NCBI GenBank assembly: GCA_000165345.1
Contig: CM000436.1
Span: 352,001 to 416,000 of the forward strand
Reading direction: 5' to 3'
Length of the DNA: 64,000 nucleotides
Position 1 is the stretch's first letter; each line of letters starts with the position of its first letter. The notes under the pieces were generated by a model, which saw only the letters and a list, made by a program, of their open reading frames with translations, had not been told where the DNA came from and did no database searches. Below are positions 9,624-64,000 of the stretch, in pieces. A program made the position numbers and the translations under genes.

Positions 9624-12335
9624 ATGTTAATATCAAAGTTATTTAAAAGAAAAACAACAAATACATTGAATCATGTGGATAATGTAAATGTTGAGACTGA
9701 TCAACTATTTGAACTTAAAAAAATGGTTATGGAAAAATACAAAAATTTGATGAGATTAAAAAGAAATGATCAAGATCAAATAGATTATCGAATTTATATA
9801 GAATCATCATTTATCAATGATTCTTGTTTTTTGCCTCCACTTTTAATCGATAAAAAACCAGGAACAAAGCTTACAAAGTTAAATAATGATCAAGCACAAT
9901 TTTTGTTGTTAATGTTATTATATAATCAACAACTATCATTTCAAGAGAATATAATAAATCAATCAATTAATATTTGTTTGAAGGAACAATATATATTAAT
10001 AGTAGAACAAATGGTGAGAAGTTTAATGTTATCAAAGAAACAGAAAAAAATGGTAGTAAAATGGAAGAAGTTGAATAGTAATGTAGAATTATTTCCAATT
10101 AGTAATTTTGTGAATATTACTTCGAGTAATATAATACAAGGATTTATTGGAGATTGTTCATTTATTGTTGTGTTATCTTTATTGCTAGAGCATGAGAAGA
10201 AATTTGATTCAAATTTATTATCAAATCTGATAAGTCCAATAAAATTCTCAATAAAGAATCAAAATCATCAGAATCAAAATAATACTAATGGTTATCAAAA
10301 AATTCATAATTATGAAAATAATAATAATAATATTAATGAATTGGATGATGTGTTATGTCTTTATAAATGTAAATTATTAATTAATGGTATTTGGAGAAAT
10401 ATTTTTGTGGATAGTTTAATTCCTATTGATTCTGGAAATAATTGTTTGTTATCACATTTTGATTGTAATAAATATTATGGTATAACCTTAATTGAAAAAG
10501 CATATTTAAAAGTTATGGCAAATAGATATGATTCTGTTGAAAGTAATCCTTCAATAGATTTATATTATTTAACAGGATGGATACCTGAAACTATTTCTAT
10601 TAAATCACATTATGAAAAAAAAGGGAGCTATTTTCTAAATTTATGGAATCGTATAAAAAAGCCAATACAAAATGGATATTGCTTAATGGCTTTGGGTACT
10701 AATGAAATTAATTCAAATATTGATAATCATGCAAGATTAAGTCCTAGTAATTATAGAAGTTCTCGAGATAAACCACTTAATAGATTTGATAATGAAATTG
10801 ATAATAATCAGTTAGAATATAAGTTTATTTCAAAAGAAGATATTTGTAAAAAAACTGGATTAGTAACTAAACATGCATATCAAGTTTTAAGAATTGTTGA
10901 ACTAGTTAATCAAGAAAATGATTCTATTCGCAGATTAATTTTATTAAGAAATCCATGGGGAAAAATCAGTTGGAAAGGAAAATTCTCAAAATATGATAAA
11001 GAAATATGGACTAATGAACTTGTAGAATTATTAGGTAATCATTTTAATTATAAAGTTAATCAAGATAATGGAATTTTTTGGATTGAATGGAATGATATAT
11101 TGAAATGGTTTTCACATATATATTTAGCTTGGGATCCTGAAAAAGTATCCAAACATTTAAAAAAAGTACATGGTAAATGGTTACCATGCCCACATAATTC
11201 AATATTAAAAGATGATTTACATCTTTTATATTTTTATCCTCAATATAAGTTATCTATTGATACTAAGTTAATAAATAAATTAAAAATGGATCATTCAAAT
11301 TTATTGAATGAAAAAGAATTCATTAATCGAGACATTAATAAACCACAATCAAATATTAATGATTATAAAAGATTAAAGTTACATTTTGATTCAAATCAAA
11401 ATGATTATATTGAAGATTATTCAAAAAATAATCTATTTGTAAGAAAATGGAAAAAATCCGATATTATTGATTATGAAAATTATAATGTTGGTGATATTTG
11501 GATTGTATTAAATAGACATATTGATTATTTGGAAGCAAAAGAATTTGATGATAATTACAATAAGCCAGATATTAATAATATACCTTTTATGTCAATAAGT
11601 ATATTTAGAGGTAGAAGCCGAATAGTCACTCAAGAAAGGTTACCAATTATGCAAGGTGTCTATAGTAATGGTAATGTAATTACATTCAAAACAAGTATTT
11701 TTCAATTATTAAGAGAATATGAACATTTTGATTTACAAGAAAATAAAGATTTTGTATTAGTTATTACTCAATATCAAAGTAATAAAAGTTTTAATTATAC
11801 ATTAAATATATATAGTAATTTTGAAATGAGTATTAAGTTATTGGATTCTTATTTTCAAAAGATTATATATCCTATTAGTAATAATTATAGTTTTATAGAA
11901 ATTAATGGTAAAATTCTACATTATAATTATAGTGAAAGATATTATATTAGTTTAATGAGAAATTCAAAAATTAAATTGGTTCCTGCTATATCTAATAAAT
12001 ATTTTAATTTAAAAAGCGAAACAGATAAAGTAAATACTTTAAATTCATTTAAAAGTGAGTTATCTGATGAACATTTCAGAGTTTTAATATTATTAGAAAT
12101 TAAAGAAAAATGTAATAATTTCAAGTTAAGGATTTTTCCAGAAACCTTTGATGAACAAGACAAAATCACTAAATTGAGTTCCAGTAATGATTTATATAAT
12201 AATAGTAATTGTAAATTTACTACATCCATTTGCAGTTATGGTAATTACTTTATTTTGATTGATTTCAAAGAAAAACAACAAGATTTTGTAAAAGGCAACT
12301 TTTTTAAGCTTATTATTTATTATCAAAAAATTTAA
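9624..12335 (+). CDS. Calpain-like cysteine protease (peptidase family C2)
   Basis: 903-aa ORF starting at ATG. The catalytic triad motifs are present: QGFIGDCSFIVV (Cys), TKHAYQVLRI (His) and LLRNPWGKISWKGKF (Asn). It has a long C-terminal extension. Confidence 0.75.
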   Translation: MLISKLFKRKTTNTLNHVDNVNVETDQLFELKKMVMEKYKNLMRLKRNDQDQIDYRIYIESSFINDSCFLPPLLIDKKPGTKLTKLNNDQAQFLLLMLLYNQQLSFQENIINQSINICLKEQYILIVEQMVRSLMLSKKQKKMVVKWKKLNSNVELFPISNFVNITSSNIIQGFIGDCSFIVVLSLLLEHEKKFDSNLLSNLISPIKFSIKNQNHQNQNNTNGYQKIHNYENNNNNINELDDVLCLYKCKLLINGIWRNIFVDSLIPIDSGNNCLLSHFDCNKYYGITLIEKAYLKVMANRYDSVESNPSIDLYYLTGWIPETISIKSHYEKKGSYFLNLWNRIKKPIQNGYCLMALGTNEINSNIDNHARLSPSNYRSSRDKPLNRFDNEIDNNQLEYKFISKEDICKKTGLVTKHAYQVLRIVELVNQENDSIRRLILLRNPWGKISWKGKFSKYDKEIWTNELVELLGNHFNYKVNQDNGIFWIEWNDILKWFSHIYLAWDPEKVSKHLKKVHGKWLPCPHNSILKDDLHLLYFYPQYKLSIDTKLINKLKMDHSNLLNEKEFINRDINKPQSNINDYKRLKLHFDSNQNDYIEDYSKNNLFVRKWKKSDIIDYENYNVGDIWIVLNRHIDYLEAKEFDDNYNKPDINNIPFMSISIFRGRSRIVTQERLPIMQGVYSNGNVITFKTSIFQLLREYEHFDLQENKDFVLVITQYQSNKSFNYTLNIYSNFEMSIKLLDSYFQKIIYPISNNYSFIEINGKILHYNYSERYYISLMRNSKIKLVPAISNKYFNLKSETDKVNTLNSFKSELSDEHFRVLILLEIKEKCNNFKLRIFPETFDEQDKITKLSSSNDLYNNSNCKFTTSICSYGNYFILIDFKEKQQDFVKGNFFKLIIYYQKI

Positions 12336-12557
12336 AAATATGTTATCACAAGATTTATTCTAAATATTTTTTTACACGTCATTTTTGCATGCATGCAATA
12401 ATAATTTATTAAAAAGGAAGTTGATGTTTAATTTTATTAAAAATTTATTTAAATAAATAAACAAATTTCTTTGTTTTTTTTCTCTTTTTTTTGGAAAATT
12501 GTGTATCTTAAATAATTTAAAATCTGGTAGTGTTATATATACTTATAGTTAAATAAG

Positions 12558-13439
12558 TTACGTAGGAATAGGCTCAGAAGCTTCAACGGAAACATTGTCA
12601 GATCTTATATCAGCAGGTGAGGATATTAAGGTTTGATATTTAGAAGCAATTTGTCTTCTTGATTCTTGACAAATAGTTTTTACGACATCATTGATAGTTG
12701 GTCCTCCTAGTATAGATGCAGATTTTCCGTAAGTATCGAAAACCACGTTACAAACTGCATTAAATTGATCATGACAAGAATTACCAGTACAAGTCTTATT
12801 ATTTATTTCCAATAATCCAGAACTTACAAGTCCAACAAAAAAAGTAACACAAACTTGAAGAAAAGTCTCCTTGTATAAAACTTCCAAGGCTGGAACTTTA
12901 AACTTTTTTTTAGAAGGAATTGATAATCCATTTTTTATTAGTTGTTCTTGAATTAAACTATTTATTGTACTTTCATCTAACCATGTATCCATAGATAACA
13001 AGAATTTAGTACATTTTTCATAATCCAAATCTCTAAATCCAAGATCTAAATATGGATTACTTGTGAATAAACATATTCCAAAACCTTTAGATGAAGATTC
13101 TTTTTGCATTATTTCCTTAATATCTTTATTCAATTGTTCTATTGATGGTTTTTTAAAAAGTTCATTCAAAAATGAACCACCAGAAGCTAAATTACCAGTA
13201 TTTTGTTGTGGATTATTTACTATAATAGTAGTAGCTTGAGTACTTGTAGAAGTTGTAGGTAAATTGGCATTATTAACCAAATTTGGAGGTAATAATCCAC
13301 TATTTGCTAATAATTGTTGAGGAACTAATTGTCCAAATACATTATTTCTTAATCCATACAACAAATTAATCTTAATAACAAACTCAATAATAATTAATAG
13401 TATTATCCATTTTCTATATCTTATAACACAATATTTCAT
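12558..13439 (-). CDS. Hypothetical protein with N-terminal signal-anchor, Cys-containing
   Basis: 293-aa ORF starting at ATG 13439. There is a hydrophobic N-terminal segment (WIILLIIIEFVIKINLL). I recognise no domain. A (CCTCTTT)4 repeat lies upstream. Confidence 0.4.
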   Translation of the reverse strand: MKYCVIRYRKWIILLIIIEFVIKINLLYGLRNNVFGQLVPQQLLANSGLLPPNLVNNANLPTTSTSTQATTIIVNNPQQNTGNLASGGSFLNELFKKPSIEQLNKDIKEIMQKESSSKGFGICLFTSNPYLDLGFRDLDYEKCTKFLLSMDTWLDESTINSLIQEQLIKNGLSIPSKKKFKVPALEVLYKETFLQVCVTFFVGLVSSGLLEINNKTCTGNSCHDQFNAVCNVVFDTYGKSASILGGPTINDVVKTICQESRRQIASKYQTLISSPADIRSDNVSVEASEPIPT

Positions 13440-13575
13440 TCTTTATATATAATAAAATGTTATATTATTATTTGTATATTTAACATTTAAGAATATATTA
13501 AATACTATTTCCAACATTTGAATTTTTCTGTGTGCAAACAAATTCACTGTATTAATATTATACCCATACCTCATT

Positions 13576-13603
13576 CCTCTTTCCTCTTTCCTCTTTCCTC
13601 TTT
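13576..13603. repeat. (CCTCTTT)4 heptanucleotide tandem repeat, intergenic
   Basis: cctctttcctctttcctctttcctcttc, about 140 bp upstream of ATG 13439 (-) and downstream of the MED14 stop. Confidence 0.7.
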
Positions 13604-13789
13604 CCTCTTCTCTATTTATAAATTATCAAAGAAATATCAGCATTATTCTTTCCTCTCATACCTCTATAATATAAGCAATATATATATTCAATTCTCTTTT
13701 CTTTGAAATAGAATAATTCAAGTCTAAAATTGACCATTCAAGTTTTTTTATACAATTCGGTCACCATTTATCCTTCCAGGTTAATACAA

Positions 13790-22210
<8,421 letters not shown>

Positions 22211-22305
22211 CTTCAACTAATTTGCAAACTTCTTCCTCCTTTTTCCTTTTCCTTATCCCATATAATCCTCTTACCTAAATTTTCACTGCTTGACTTTGCC
22301 AAATG

Positions 22306-61322: not shown

Positions 61323-64000
61323 ATGACGTATGATGAGCATCTAGAACTGCGAAACGATCTTTATCAGACATCGCTTAGACTTTTTCGCAGTGATATAAAA
61401 TGGCTATCCGAATATATTCCCTCAGTATCAAAATGGCGAGTAAAAGTAATGCTGAAGGAGGAATTGGGGAGTTTTACAGGTGACAACTGTCCAAATAATC
61501 AATCCTCAACATATGGAAAAAGAATTTTTGGAAAAAATAATTTAACAAGTTCACCTCAACCTGAGGAAAACTTGGTAAGTATTAGCAATTCTGAAGGTTC
61601 ACCTAATTCTAATTTAAAACATAATTTATGTGATATCAACGATGCTATTATTAATAAAGAAGAGATTTCAATAAAAATTCCTTCTATACCTTCAAATTCT
61701 GAATCTCCCAATAATTCATTTTATTCGAACGGTGTATTTGCTACAGATAGTGAGAAAACAAACTCCGGTATTAATCATTTTGATAATGCATGTAAAATTA
61801 ATGTGGATAAAAATGACGAATTGCCGGTATATGACAAATTACATGTGGATAATAATAAAAATAATGAAATAAAAATTGAGCAAAAAGAATCTGTGTGTGC
61901 AAATGAAGAACAAAATGAAAAAAATGGATTAATTTTGAGTATTAATTTTGAAGATAATGAGAAGAGTGAGGTTAATGAATTTAATCAAGGTGAAGCTATA
62001 AATAGAGATCAAAGTGAGAGAGATGAGTTTAGAACTTACAATATTTTGACAGGTAAAGATGGTAAGTATTCCAAGGAAAAAGTTACCAATATTTCTTCAT
62101 TTGGCCTAACTTTATGGGAATATTTACCTTTGGTAGCAATATTGAGTGGCTGTACTGGAATATTTATTATTTTTAGACTATCTTCAGCAATGTATAGATA
62201 TTCTGTTCTATCTTGTATAATTTCTCATTTGATAACTTTTCTCTTAATTGGAATTCCCTTATCACAACTTGAGTTTTCTATGAGGAAAAAAGGTCAAAGA
62301 TATGGATTTTTGGAAGCAATGCAATATTTTAATCCTAAATATGTTGGAATAACCATTTTAAGTTTGGTTACAGTTATGATAATTTTTCTATATTCTGTTC
62401 AGATTATTAGTTCTTTGAGCGTTATATTGCATAATATCTCAAAGAAAGCATGGAGAATAACTTTTGATGATACATTAGTTTGCAGTCAAATAAATAATTC
62501 AATATTCCCAACAAATGGTGAACTAATTGATACTATAAAATCTGGAAAATTAACTTCAGAAAGACTCAACAATGCATACTCACTCTGTTCTCTTTCTTCT
62601 ATCTGTAATATGATTATTCCTTTCTTCCAGGATACAAATGGCATGATGAATGCTATCAAATCTTATATTACAACCTCTGAAACAGGAAATACCACAACAA
62701 ATTCCAGAGTTTTGGATAATTCAAACATTGAATTTTTTGAGAAAATCGATAAAGCTACAAATAATACTATTGATTCTCCATACTCTCCCAATTTTCCAAC
62801 ATGGTGTTTGCCTTCACCATCGAAAAAATTACGTAATTTGATGGTTTTGCAACAAAGTGGTTACCAGGAAACAATTTACTTCTCTTTAAAAAATGCTATA
62901 ATTAATACTGAAAACTTGTTTGAAACTCAGATCTTTCCTATGAAGAAGCCTTTGAAATGGTTTAATTCCAATTTATTAGCAAGAATTGTTGGAATTTCAT
63001 TTGCATTTATATTTATAATATTATCAATAAATGGAGGAGGAAAGCTTTATAGAGTTGCATCATTCTTATCATTTCTCTCTCTTATGACGCTATTTCTTAC
63101 TGCTTCAATTCAGATTGTTGCTAATGATATTCAACTTAATATATTCATTTCAATTCTAGTCACTCAGGAAGGAATTGAAAATCTATTTTCTCCAGCAATA
63201 TGGTACTGCTCAATAAACAATACTCTACTCTTCTTTGGAATTTCATTCTTAATTACAATGTTCCCTTTGAAGGAATTAATCAGAGAAGATTACAATACTA
63301 ATACTTCGAATTCTTTAGGTTATGAGAAAGATCATTTTTATGATAAATTTACGTATGATCACGTTAGTTCCAGACCAGAAGTTACTAAGAATTCGATTTC
63401 TTCTATTTTTGAGACTGAAAATCAAAAATCTGATAAAGTCCCAATTGGCTTCAAAAAACCAAGAATTGGTGAAATCACTCTTAGAAAGCATGTTTCCAGG
63501 ATATATAAATCAGTTTATAACCAAGAAATTGAAAAAAGTGATTTAAAACACAGAAATATTGAAGATTTTTCTATTGAAAATGTATCTAAAGTCCCAATCA
63601 ATTATAATAATGAGGAGAATACTATCAGTCAAAATCAAAATGTTAAAAATATGGCTTTAGAGTCCTGTCCAAATGGTCATGATGAACATAAACATTTCCC
63701 TTCTTTAATGAGCGCAGCTAATTCTGCTGTGTTCTTTCTTGCATGCGTAATGATATCGTCAATGGTTGTTTTAATATCTAACGCAGCTCTAATTTCCCTC
63801 TCTGAATCTCCATATACTCCTTTACTTCTTCCTTTCAATGAAAAGTATAGTAATGTATTTAGTAATGGCTCAATTAAAGGAAGTATCAATTATCAAGGAG
63901 TTTATAGACCAATTACAGAATCAGATCCCTATGCAAATAACAGAGCTTATTATTATTTTGATGGTTCAATGTACAAAGGATTTGAATATTTTAATACTTC
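61323..64000 (+). CDS. 3'-truncated multi-pass membrane protein (absent from ORF track); weak SLC6/NSS-like TM1-TM2 motif
   Basis: I checked the frame codon by codon from ATG 61323 (preceded by an in-frame TAA at 61317) to the window end and found no stop: at least 892 codons. There are about 9 or more hydrophobic helices (for example LWEYLPLVAILSGCTGIFIIF, ITFLLIGIPLSQLEF, GITILSLVTVMIIFLY, ARIVGISFAFIFIILSI, AVFFLACVMISSMVVLI). IGIPLSQLEFSMRKKGQ resembles the NSS-family GIPLFxLExxxGQ block. The N-terminal roughly 250 aa is hydrophilic. An E2F-like TTTGGCGGGAA site lies at 61131. Confidence 0.5.
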   Translation, partial: MTYDEHLELRNDLYQTSLRLFRSDIKWLSEYIPSVSKWRVKVMLKEELGSFTGDNCPNNQSSTYGKRIFGKNNLTSSPQPEENLVSISNSEGSPNSNLKHNLCDINDAIINKEEISIKIPSIPSNSESPNNSFYSNGVFATDSEKTNSGINHFDNACKINVDKNDELPVYDKLHVDNNKNNEIKIEQKESVCANEEQNEKNGLILSINFEDNEKSEVNEFNQGEAINRDQSERDEFRTYNILTGKDGKYSKEKVTNISSFGLTLWEYLPLVAILSGCTGIFIIFRLSSAMYRYSVLSCIISHLITFLLIGIPLSQLEFSMRKKGQRYGFLEAMQYFNPKYVGITILSLVTVMIIFLYSVQIISSLSVILHNISKKAWRITFDDTLVCSQINNSIFPTNGELIDTIKSGKLTSERLNNAYSLCSLSSICNMIIPFFQDTNGMMNAIKSYITTSETGNTTTNSRVLDNSNIEFFEKIDKATNNTIDSPYSPNFPTWCLPSPSKKLRNLMVLQQSGYQETIYFSLKNAIINTENLFETQIFPMKKPLKWFNSNLLARIVGISFAFIFIILSINGGGKLYRVASFLSFLSLMTLFLTASIQIVANDIQLNIFISILVTQEGIENLFSPAIWYCSINNTLLFFGISFLITMFPLKELIREDYNTNTSNSLGYEKDHFYDKFTYDHVSSRPEVTKNSISSIFETENQKSDKVPIGFKKPRIGEITLRKHVSRIYKSVYNQEIEKSDLKHRNIEDFSIENVSKVPINYNNEENTISQNQNVKNMALESCPNGHDEHKHFPSLMSAANSAVFFLACVMISSMVVLISNAALISLSESPYTPLLLPFNEKYSNVFSNGSIKGSINYQGVYRPITESDPYANNRAYYYFDGSMYKGFEYFNT

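Follow-up and report, generated by a model that had tools for sequence, protein, structure and literature searches.

A Cryptosporidium-restricted multi-pass membrane protein with diverged SLC6/NSS-like similarity across its first three membrane segments

Apicomplexan NSS-like membrane proteins are among the known systems closest to the locus reported here. Plasmodium GEP1, also designated NSS2 (PF3D7_0515500, PY17X_1116300), comprises 905-960 residues with 14 transmembrane segments (TMs), has GC-alpha as a demonstrated partner, and exhibits a gametogenesis phenotype. Besides GEP1, the diverged NSS proteins of Plasmodium include NSS1, NSS3, and MAATS1, and these proteins have been described as having "diverged considerably" from NSS. 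In Toxoplasma gondii, SLF (TGGT1_208420) is a subunit of the guanylate cyclase complex, a protein of 143 kDa with 16 predicted TMs that is SNF-like over TMs 1-13; a BLAST survey reported it as absent from Cryptosporidia and gregarines. Here, we compare with these proteins, and with the SLC6/NSS carriers themselves, the product of a Cryptosporidium gene found at the end of a window of 64,000 nucleotides (the whole stretch of DNA that was analyzed), in which all features given below lie on the + strand.

The initial annotation had described a reading frame without a stop from ATG 61323 to base 64000, and the re-translation of 61323..64000 indeed returned 892 stop-free codons with no in-frame stop, while 39-122 stops interrupt each of the five remaining frames of this region. 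The upstream in-frame TAA was also found, although it does not adjoin the start codon as had been described: it occupies 61317..61319, two codons upstream, and is followed by AAG at 61320-61322 and then by the ATG, which is the first start past this TAA and matches Met1 in all orthologues. The absence of the frame from the supplied ORF track had been ascribed to its running off the window; the tool leaves out ORFs that cross an end and lists none beyond 60930, and the absence is therefore a window-edge effect. By extending the sequence past 64000 on public contigs that show 0 mismatches to the window across 17,689 nt, the stop was located, revealing an intronless, single-exon gene of 1,604 codons that would end at the window-equivalent position 66137. 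The window holds codons 1-892 plus 2 nt (61323..64000), the 5' 56% of the gene, as traced by the lack of a stop, the identical contigs, and the accession names. The gene (CPATCC_003959) lies at ~405 kb of a 1.38-Mb chromosome record; its product is C. parvum XP_627058.1/EAK89363.1, which carries the annotation "hypothetical protein" or "Large protein with possibly 18 transmembrane domains". The claim that the gene would be invisible holds for the supplied track but not for GenBank, where C. parvum, C. hominis, C. tyzzeri, and further species have it annotated as a transmembrane or hypothetical protein; a literature search on the identifiers of the gene gave no match. The "missing ORF" as such is ordinary: the window ends inside a gene that was already annotated.

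Across the genus, the orthologues range from 1,383 to 1,605 residues (1,604 in C. parvum), and hydropathy analysis of the full-length protein delineates about 15-17 hydrophobic segments with several loops of >100 residues. Seven of these segments fall in the window part, in agreement with the many hydrophobic helices initially noted, and the hydrophilic N-terminal extension, previously estimated at ~250 residues, spans about 250-260, the first hydrophobic segment beginning at residue 265. The parts are arranged as a ~260-residue, presumably cytosolic N-terminal extension with a conserved 45-residue head, followed by the 15-17 segments with their large loops and by a conserved C-terminal tail. 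The head (residues 1-45, MTYDEHLELRNDLYQTSLRLF..WLSEYIPSVSKWRVKVML, 61323..61457) exhibits 80% identity to C. canis and invariant columns, and produced no family match, while the remainder of the extension (residues 46-254, 61458..62084) is variable, hydrophilic, and Asn/Ser/Glu-rich, with 39.8% identity to C. canis and indels between species. Hydropathy and alignment place segment 1 at residues 265-290 (62115..62192), segment 2 at residues 293-316 (62199..62270), which has GIPL at its end, and segment 3 at residues 338-370 (62334..62432), in which FLYSVQIIS stands opposite GLYYNTIIS of B0AT1. A large loop of 176 residues follows TM3 (residues 371-546, 62433..62960), as delimited by alignment and composition, with four invariant Cys (387, 422, 428, and 495) and three N-x-S/T sequons; its place is that of the glycosylated, disulfide-bearing extracellular loop 2 in eukaryotic SLC6 proteins. 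Segments 4 and 5 (residues 547-573 and 578-600, 62961..63122) are separated by a basic INGGGKLYR turn, and segment 6 (AIWYCSINNTLLFFGISF) comprises residues 631-653 (63213..63281). A long hydrophilic loop (residues 654-792, 63282..63698; 31.7% identity to C. canis), poorly conserved save for PRIGEITLRKHVSRIYKSVYNQE, leads to the highly conserved segment 7 (residues 793-827, 63699..63803; 86% identity to C. canis). The loops that join TM2 to TM3 and TM4 to TM5 are rich in K/R, and that between TM5 and TM6 is acidic. The predicted topology, with the N-terminus inside and the big Cys- and sequon-bearing loop between TM3 and TM4, is consistent with that of eukaryotic SLC6 proteins, a pattern that is not specific to SLC6.

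The alignments delimit an SLC6/NSS-like module at residues 270-371 (62130..62435), corresponding to B0AT1 residues 42-142 (TM1-TM3). Within it, the GIPLSQLEFSMRKKGQ block (residues 310-325, 62250..62297) had been likened to the GIPLFxLE...GQ signature of NSS. This likeness is upheld for the end of TM2, the inside loop, and TM3, where the similarity is significant and NSS-only in the PDB, but it does not extend to the whole YY pair, whose second Tyr is Ser. In NSS, the block corresponds to G(I/V)PL..LE...GQ, where TM2 passes into the first inside loop, and in the alignment of six species G310, I311, P312, Q315, E317, F318, R321, K322, and G324 are invariant within it. When the window protein was compared with the PDB using phmmer, B0AT1 was retrieved at E 4.6e-4, and the six-species profile produced 33 matches at E<=10, 33 of them NSS. 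The sub-profile of TM1-TM3 (residues about 265-372) was likewise exclusive to NSS (35/35 matches at E<=10), with E-values of 5.1e-6 for B0AT1, 0.13 for SIT1, and 0.12-0.2 for LeuT. Using hhalign, the comparison of TM1-TM3 with 76 SLC6 N-terminal fragments gave a probability of 91.7% (E 7.9e-7) and a score of 40.3, against 9.1 for the reversed template and a mean of 12.6 (sd 3.5, max 28.9) for sixty column-shuffled decoys; the whole family alignment gave E 6e-5 to 1.8e-4 with the same fragments. Scores above the best reversed decoy were attained by 126 of the 133 real NSS sequences, and the 26.6 bits of B0AT1 were reached by 0 of 301 decoys. Farther along, the best B0AT1 site of the TM4-5 profile was the colinear one (residues 206-239, TTGK), with a weak 2.1 bits that 3% of decoys also reached. 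As judged by these profile comparisons, the TM1-TM3 similarity to SLC6/NSS is specific and statistically supported, and very diverged.

The reading we consider best, at slightly better than even confidence, is that the protein derives from NSS, is confined to the genus and greatly expanded, and remains carrier-like while lacking the canonical Na1 site. Membrane helices 1-3, and probably also helices 4 and 5, would descend from SLC6/NSS (LeuT fold, TC 2.A.22), and the protein as a whole would constitute a fast-evolving NSS derivative that may still move a small solute by alternating access, or sense one in a carrier-like manner, an amino acid being the most plausible solute. The canonical GLGNVWRFPY block had initially been reported as not recognizable, and the aligned stretch is GIFIIFRLSS; the aligned TM1 reads T-G-I-F-I-I-F-R-L-S-S in all six species, with only the Gly and the Arg of the motif kept. 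Canonical Na1-site coupling has probably been lost, because in all species examined the Na1 Asn position of TM1 is an invariant Ile and the substrate-gate Tyr of TM3 (the second of the YY pair) aligns with Ser. GEP1, an accepted apicomplexan NSS-like protein, is no closer to SLC6 in the same hhalign test (E 2.4e-4). The initial annotation had offered a divergent NSS-like transporter and a lineage-specific protein with an N-terminal extension as alternatives; both descriptions seem to apply, the protein being Cryptosporidium-only and NSS-similar in TM1-TM3, and only their mutual exclusion is not retained.

The alternative that survives best, which we hold to be rather unlikely, is that of a Cryptosporidium-specific multi-pass protein of no NSS ancestry, in which the TM2-TM3 likeness (GIPL..LEF..G) would reflect convergence or an accident among hydrophobic helices, or, in a variant, that of a protein in which only an N-terminal piece of three to five helices is NSS-derived and fused to unrelated membrane domains. 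In its favor, the likeness is limited to about 100 residues, and the family searches were negative: Pfam SNF (PF00209) was unmatched at E<=10 by the window protein, the full C. canis orthologue, and ten isolated TM segments, and NCBIfam was unmatched at E<=10 by window residues 255-892 and the whole C. canis protein; the full C. parvum product likewise has no recorded Pfam match. Membership of the NSS family is not established. The TM1 profile alone gave no signal relative to decoys, and beyond TM5 no NSS similarity was detected, since neither TM6 nor segment 7 nor any of the C-terminal half exceeded decoys, while PDB searches with the sub-profiles of TM4-6 and later segments returned either no match or unrelated, non-significant ones. 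Four by-eye resemblances, which contradicted one another and did not exceed decoys, were rejected: AIWYCSINNTLLFFGISF (W....NN..FFG.SF) as the unwound NSS TM6 motif (W..A.Q.FFS.G.G.G), SVNFMLALTAGIE..LTWY as TM7-like or TM10-like, FAISSAC as TM8-like, and AKYFSP as TM11-like; the first three also had no NSS match in the PDB. Other NSS profiles were also run in hhalign, one set built from ten prokaryotic NSS of plasmid records and another from SERT, DAT, GAT1, and B0AT1 (queries validated against the PDB, B0AT1 corresponding exactly to PDB chain residues 2-634); their scores lay close to those of reversed decoys, the monoamine and GABA carriers SERT, DAT, and GAT1 and the prokaryotic NSS being barely above them. 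The roughly 15-17 hydrophobic segments are too many for a plain 12-TM carrier, and they offer no simple correspondence to a 12-TM core. The AlphaFold2 models of C. ryanae residues 201-1383 and window residues 258-655, which relied on six-sequence alignments, had pLDDT values of 31.8 and 37.8 and were unusable.

The same alternative also draws on the taxonomic range. When 1.84 billion representative proteins were scanned with the profile, three clusters were returned, every one of them from Cryptosporidium, with zero relatives beyond the genus; two metagenome scans found zero relatives, and a word-indexed protein search with the TM core gave no match, a search that seems limited to query-like lengths and that missed the C. 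meleagridis orthologue, which is 85% identical. Additional sequences from C. parvum, C. hominis, and C. tyzzeri were >94% identical and added no diversity to the alignment. The protein family is detectable only in the genus Cryptosporidium. Against an origin outside NSS, however, the unbiased PDB scan returned NSS only, from three lineages (B0AT1, SIT1, and LeuT) and all at TM1-TM3, the composition-matched decoys came nowhere near the real scores, and the order of TM1, TM2, inside loop, TM3, large Cys-rich outside loop, TM4, basic turn, and TM5 is colinear with that of eukaryotic SLC6.

A second alternative retains the NSS descent and discards transport: the protein would be a membrane cofactor or sensor of a P4-ATPase-type guanylate cyclase, like GEP1 and SLF, and would control cGMP signaling in egress, motility, or gamete activation. 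This function appears improbable to us, and the narrower proposal that the Cryptosporidium protein is the counterpart of SLF/GEP1, an NSS-derived membrane cofactor of guanylate cyclase argued by analogy, seems a shade more doubtful again. In its favor, GEP1 and SLF are both diverged NSS-like proteins of apicomplexans and both bind guanylate cyclases, the Cryptosporidium protein resembles them in its long N-terminal extension, number of TMs, and size class, it has lost the canonical Na1 Asn as well as the substrate-gate Tyr, and the SLC6 likeness of GEP1 is equally faint. Nevertheless, when the GEP1 sequences of five Plasmodium species, rebuilt from Supplementary Fig. 4 of the GEP1 paper, were aligned with the Cryptosporidium family by hhalign, no significant relation was found; the best stretch, 24-27 columns long at the border of TM3 and the outside loop, had at best an E of 0.012-0.054, with reversed decoys scoring close behind. 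Moreover, the SLF paper reported SLF missing from Cryptosporidia, and the HMMER scan of 1.84 billion representatives retrieved no Toxoplasma, Plasmodium, or other non-Cryptosporidium protein at E<=1e-3.

That the frame is a chance ORF or a pseudogene is refuted and has a negligible probability, its absence from the supplied track being all that spoke for it, since 892 stop-free codons would arise with a chance of 1.1e-33 (GC 0.297, 0.0815 stops per codon, from the base composition of the stretch), intact full-length orthologues exist in at least eight species, synteny is conserved, and the divergence among codon positions is typical of coding sequence. Orthologues that are colinear and single-exon lie in syntenic context. 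The divergence from the C. canis orthologue amounts to 0.285, 0.204, and 0.622 at codon positions 1, 2, and 3, and this third-position excess reveals purifying selection on the protein. The ORF is confirmed as a real gene, previously annotated yet uncharacterized.

Cryptosporidium ranks among the major causes of diarrhoea in children and is almost wholly dependent on salvage. To our knowledge, few Cryptosporidium transporters have been assigned so far. Conserved, confined to the genus, and equipped with an SLC6-like entry module, the present membrane protein is a candidate for carrying or sensing nutrients, and it has no close host homologue. Were the protein instead the counterpart of SLF/GEP1, the platform of a cyclase and an NSS-like partner would be ancestral to all Apicomplexa, the reported gap in the cGMP machinery of Cryptosporidium would be filled, and a parasite-specific membrane component would take part in its egress and gamete signaling.

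Compared with the described systems, the Cryptosporidium protein resembles SLF in a comparable size class and TM count, a likeness drawn by description only. With GEP1 and the Plasmodium NSS proteins, it shares the apicomplexan origin, the polytopic architecture, the long cytosolic N-terminus, and a Cys-rich loop after TM3, and, as in GEP1, the faint SLC6 similarity is concentrated in TM1-TM3. Unlike the SLC6 carriers, which have about 500-650 residues, it reaches 1,383-1,605 residues with about 15-17 segments, and it exhibits no detectable TM6, TM7, TM8, or TM10 motif. What it has in common with B0AT1 (SLC6A19), SIT1 (SLC6A20), and LeuT is a TM1-TM3 region alignable over about 100 residues, which keeps the Gly and Arg of TM1, the G-I-P-L that ends TM2, E317 (matching the Glu in LEF/LEL), a basic inside loop carrying G(Q), and, in the YY pair of TM3, the aromatic residue at the first position, together with the predicted inside N-terminus, the large Cys-containing and sequon-bearing loop after TM3, and the G-K turn between TM4 and TM5 at the colinear place.

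Translation from the ATG at 61323 on the forward strand to the window edge at 64000 bore out the 892 stop-free codons claimed by the initial annotation, the remaining five frames over this interval containing 39-122 stops. At the stop frequency expected for a GC content of 0.297 (0.0815 per codon), 892 open codons would arise with a probability of ~1e-33. The in-frame TAA described upstream is present (61317-61319), although it lies two codons before the start with an AAG in between, which is immaterial. The ORF lister leaves out ORFs running off the source (its last entry ends at 60930), and the gene is missing from the track for this very reason, as had been proposed. Its supposed invisibility is a window-edge artefact: absent from the track, the gene is nevertheless already annotated publicly as hypothetical. 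The same lister starts the upstream FH2 formin (58009-60930, forward strand; 973 aa) at a GTG, probably six codons too early; the public annotation gives 967 residues (locus 11716-14619, equal to window 58027-60930). The window as a whole is AT-rich, with GC of about 0.22-0.36, and a 2,808-residue ORF on the reverse strand (13790-22216) carries long imperfect TTG/GTT trinucleotide arrays, especially at 14360-15999, which read as CAA/AAC on the coding strand, that is, as poly-Gln/Asn tracts, and cause the local spike in GC (0.36) and AT-skew (-0.335).

The stop beyond 64000 was found on public contigs located by the exact sequence of the neighboring 422-residue phosphatase. Two of them, GCA_031892065.1 CP029787.1 and GCA_035232765.1 CP141125.1, match the window at every one of the 17,689 bases they share with it and carry the gene as a single exon of 1,604 codons, whose end would correspond to window position 66137. 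The 90% cluster of its product includes XP_627058.1/EAK89363.1 ('hypothetical protein [C. parvum Iowa II]', in UniProt 'Large protein with possibly 18 transmembrane domains'), CPATCC_003959, and the C. hominis and C. tyzzeri orthologs; a literature search found no mention of the gene's identifiers, and the gene is annotated but uncharacterized. The allele in GCA_048859185.1, labeled C. parvum (locus L012 of a public contig, 15012-19829), differs from that of the window by five residues and a one-codon insertion. Beyond the window, the immediate downstream neighbor (public-contig locus L014, 20366-21269) starts about 540 nt past the gene's stop and encodes ~1,205 residues with no Pfam match on record in C. 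parvum; in C. canis, the product of the syntenic gene (1,191 residues) matches CCDC89, but only faintly.

The first protein search retrieved a colinear C. canis 'transmembrane domain-containing protein' of 1,561 residues, 58% identical from Met1, and the C. canis contig and the window have in common the upstream neighbors RPC5, PHAX, CID, Y_phosphatase3, and the FH2 formin. Identity to the C. parvum protein was 96.6% in C. tyzzeri, 94.5% in C. hominis, 86% in C. meleagridis, 61% in C. canis, 47% in C. ryanae, and 38% in C. muris/C. andersoni. Relative to C. canis, the hydrophobic blocks were 80-86% identical, the 45-residue N-terminal head 80%, and the hydrophilic stretches 32-40%, with differences of 0.285, 0.204, and 0.622 at codon positions 1, 2, and 3; as judged from these sequences, the ORF codes for a protein that purifying selection maintains. 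A two-sequence membrane-domain profile searched with HMMER against 1.84 billion representative proteins recovered three clusters only, all from Cryptosporidium (represented by one protein each from C. meleagridis, C. ryanae, and C. muris, with C. andersoni grouped in the C. muris cluster), which fits the earlier option of a lineage-specific multi-pass protein; two scans found no relatives in metagenomes. Matches from the word-indexed protein search appear to be confined to proteins near query length, and its negatives are read accordingly: queried with 892 residues, it missed a 1,603-residue ortholog of 85% identity, and queried with 100 residues, it gave only fragments of <175 residues.

The annotated hydrophilic N-terminal extension of 250 aa and the many hydrophobic helices were both recovered, as ~260 residues preceding seven hydrophobic segments in the window part (residues 265-290, 293-316, 338-370, 547-573, 578-600, 631-653, and 793-827). 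Over the full length of the protein, such segments number about 15-17; several loops exceed 100 residues, and the C-terminal tail is conserved. The loops joining TM2 to TM3 and TM4 to TM5 are basic, that between TM5 and TM6 is acidic, and the 176-residue post-TM3 loop bears three N-x-S/T sequons along with four cysteines that are invariant; these features therefore place the N-terminus inside and a large loop outside after TM3, the same arrangement as in eukaryotic SLC6 proteins. The N-terminal head (window 61323-61457, MTYDEHLELRNDLYQTSLRLF..WLSEYIPSVSKWRVKVML) and the C-terminal tail (ILDDVYESLKVP..ELYS..LGKMPQKLII, L014 about 19590-19826, beyond the window) are conserved in all Cryptosporidium species, match no known family, and may be cytosolic interaction modules.

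Similarity to SLC6/NSS transporters was concentrated in TM1-TM3. Against all PDB sequences, phmmer with the window protein matched B0AT1 (SLC6A19; E 4.6e-4, residues 271-371) and next, weakly, LeuT; NSS proteins made up 33/33 matches of a six-species profile at E<=10 and 35/35 of a TM1-TM3 sub-profile (B0AT1 5.1e-6, SIT1 0.13, LeuT 0.12-0.2). With hhalign, E was 1.8e-4 against 30 SLC6 N-terminal fragments and 7.9e-7 against 76 (91.7% probability, score 40.3, 88-93 columns including TM1), where the reversed template scored 9.1 and 60 column-shuffled controls averaged 12.6 (sd 3.5, max 28.9). Local hmmsearch ranked 126 of 133 real NSS sequences above the best reversed decoy (top 29.4 vs 2.6 bits), and the TM1-3 profile scored 26.6 bits on human B0AT1 (a sequence exactly matching residues 2-634 of the PDB chain), with 0/301 decoys near. 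The best TM4-5 site on B0AT1 was colinear (206-239, INGGGK aligned to IETTGK) at 2.1 bits, reached by 3% of decoys. These alignments suggest that TM1-TM3, and probably TM1-TM5, are most likely of SLC6/NSS origin.

The NSS-like call of the initial annotation is thus partly supported, through TM1-TM3, but formal NSS membership, at the sequence level, fails on curated profiles and the TM1 motif. Neither Pfam SNF (PF00209; ten isolated segments included) nor NCBIfam matched at E<=10. The GLGNVWRFPY block is, as described, not recognizable: the aligned GIFIIFRLSS keeps just Gly and Arg, the Na1 Asn being an invariant Ile, and an invariant Ser aligns with the TM3 substrate-gate Tyr. TM1 by itself, TM6, segment 7, and all of the C-terminal blocks could not be told apart from decoys, and their sub-profiles matched no NSS protein in PDB; hhalign against SERT/DAT/GAT1 (sequences validated against the PDB), ten prokaryotic NSS from plasmid records, or mixtures only marginally exceeded reversed controls. 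The protein beyond the NSS-like part is unassignable. By-eye motif likenesses in TM6, TM7, TM8, TM10, and TM11 were dropped as mutually inconsistent and unsupported, and two AlphaFold2 models, at pLDDT 31.8 and 37.8, were too poor to use. A lineage-specific polytopic protein, unrelated or just partly related to NSS, is the main rival; set between these profile and motif results and the TM1-TM3 similarity, it appears unlikely. We lean toward a genus-restricted, greatly expanded NSS derivative, which might serve as a carrier or a carrier-like sensor without canonical Na1 coupling.

Strongly diverged NSS-like proteins are known in Apicomplexa. Three from P. falciparum had 'diverged considerably' (Martin et al. 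2005) and appear in current listings as NSS1, GEP1/NSS2, and NSS3, alongside MAATS1. Gametogenesis requires GEP1, a 14-TM protein that binds guanylate cyclase alpha; Toxoplasma SLF, a guanylate cyclase complex subunit of 16 TMs, is SNF-like over TMs 1-13 and reported absent from Cryptosporidia and gregarines. That the Cryptosporidium family is a functional counterpart of these guanylate-cyclase partners seems improbable. Its comparison with GEP1 (five Plasmodium sequences rebuilt from Supplementary Fig. 4 of the GEP1 paper) fell short of significance (E 0.012-0.054 for 24-27 columns where TM3 meets the outside loop, decoys nearly equal). GEP1 itself aligned with SLC6 at an hhalign E of 2.4e-4, and this accepted apicomplexan NSS-like protein therefore lies at least as far from SLC6 as the Cryptosporidium family does.
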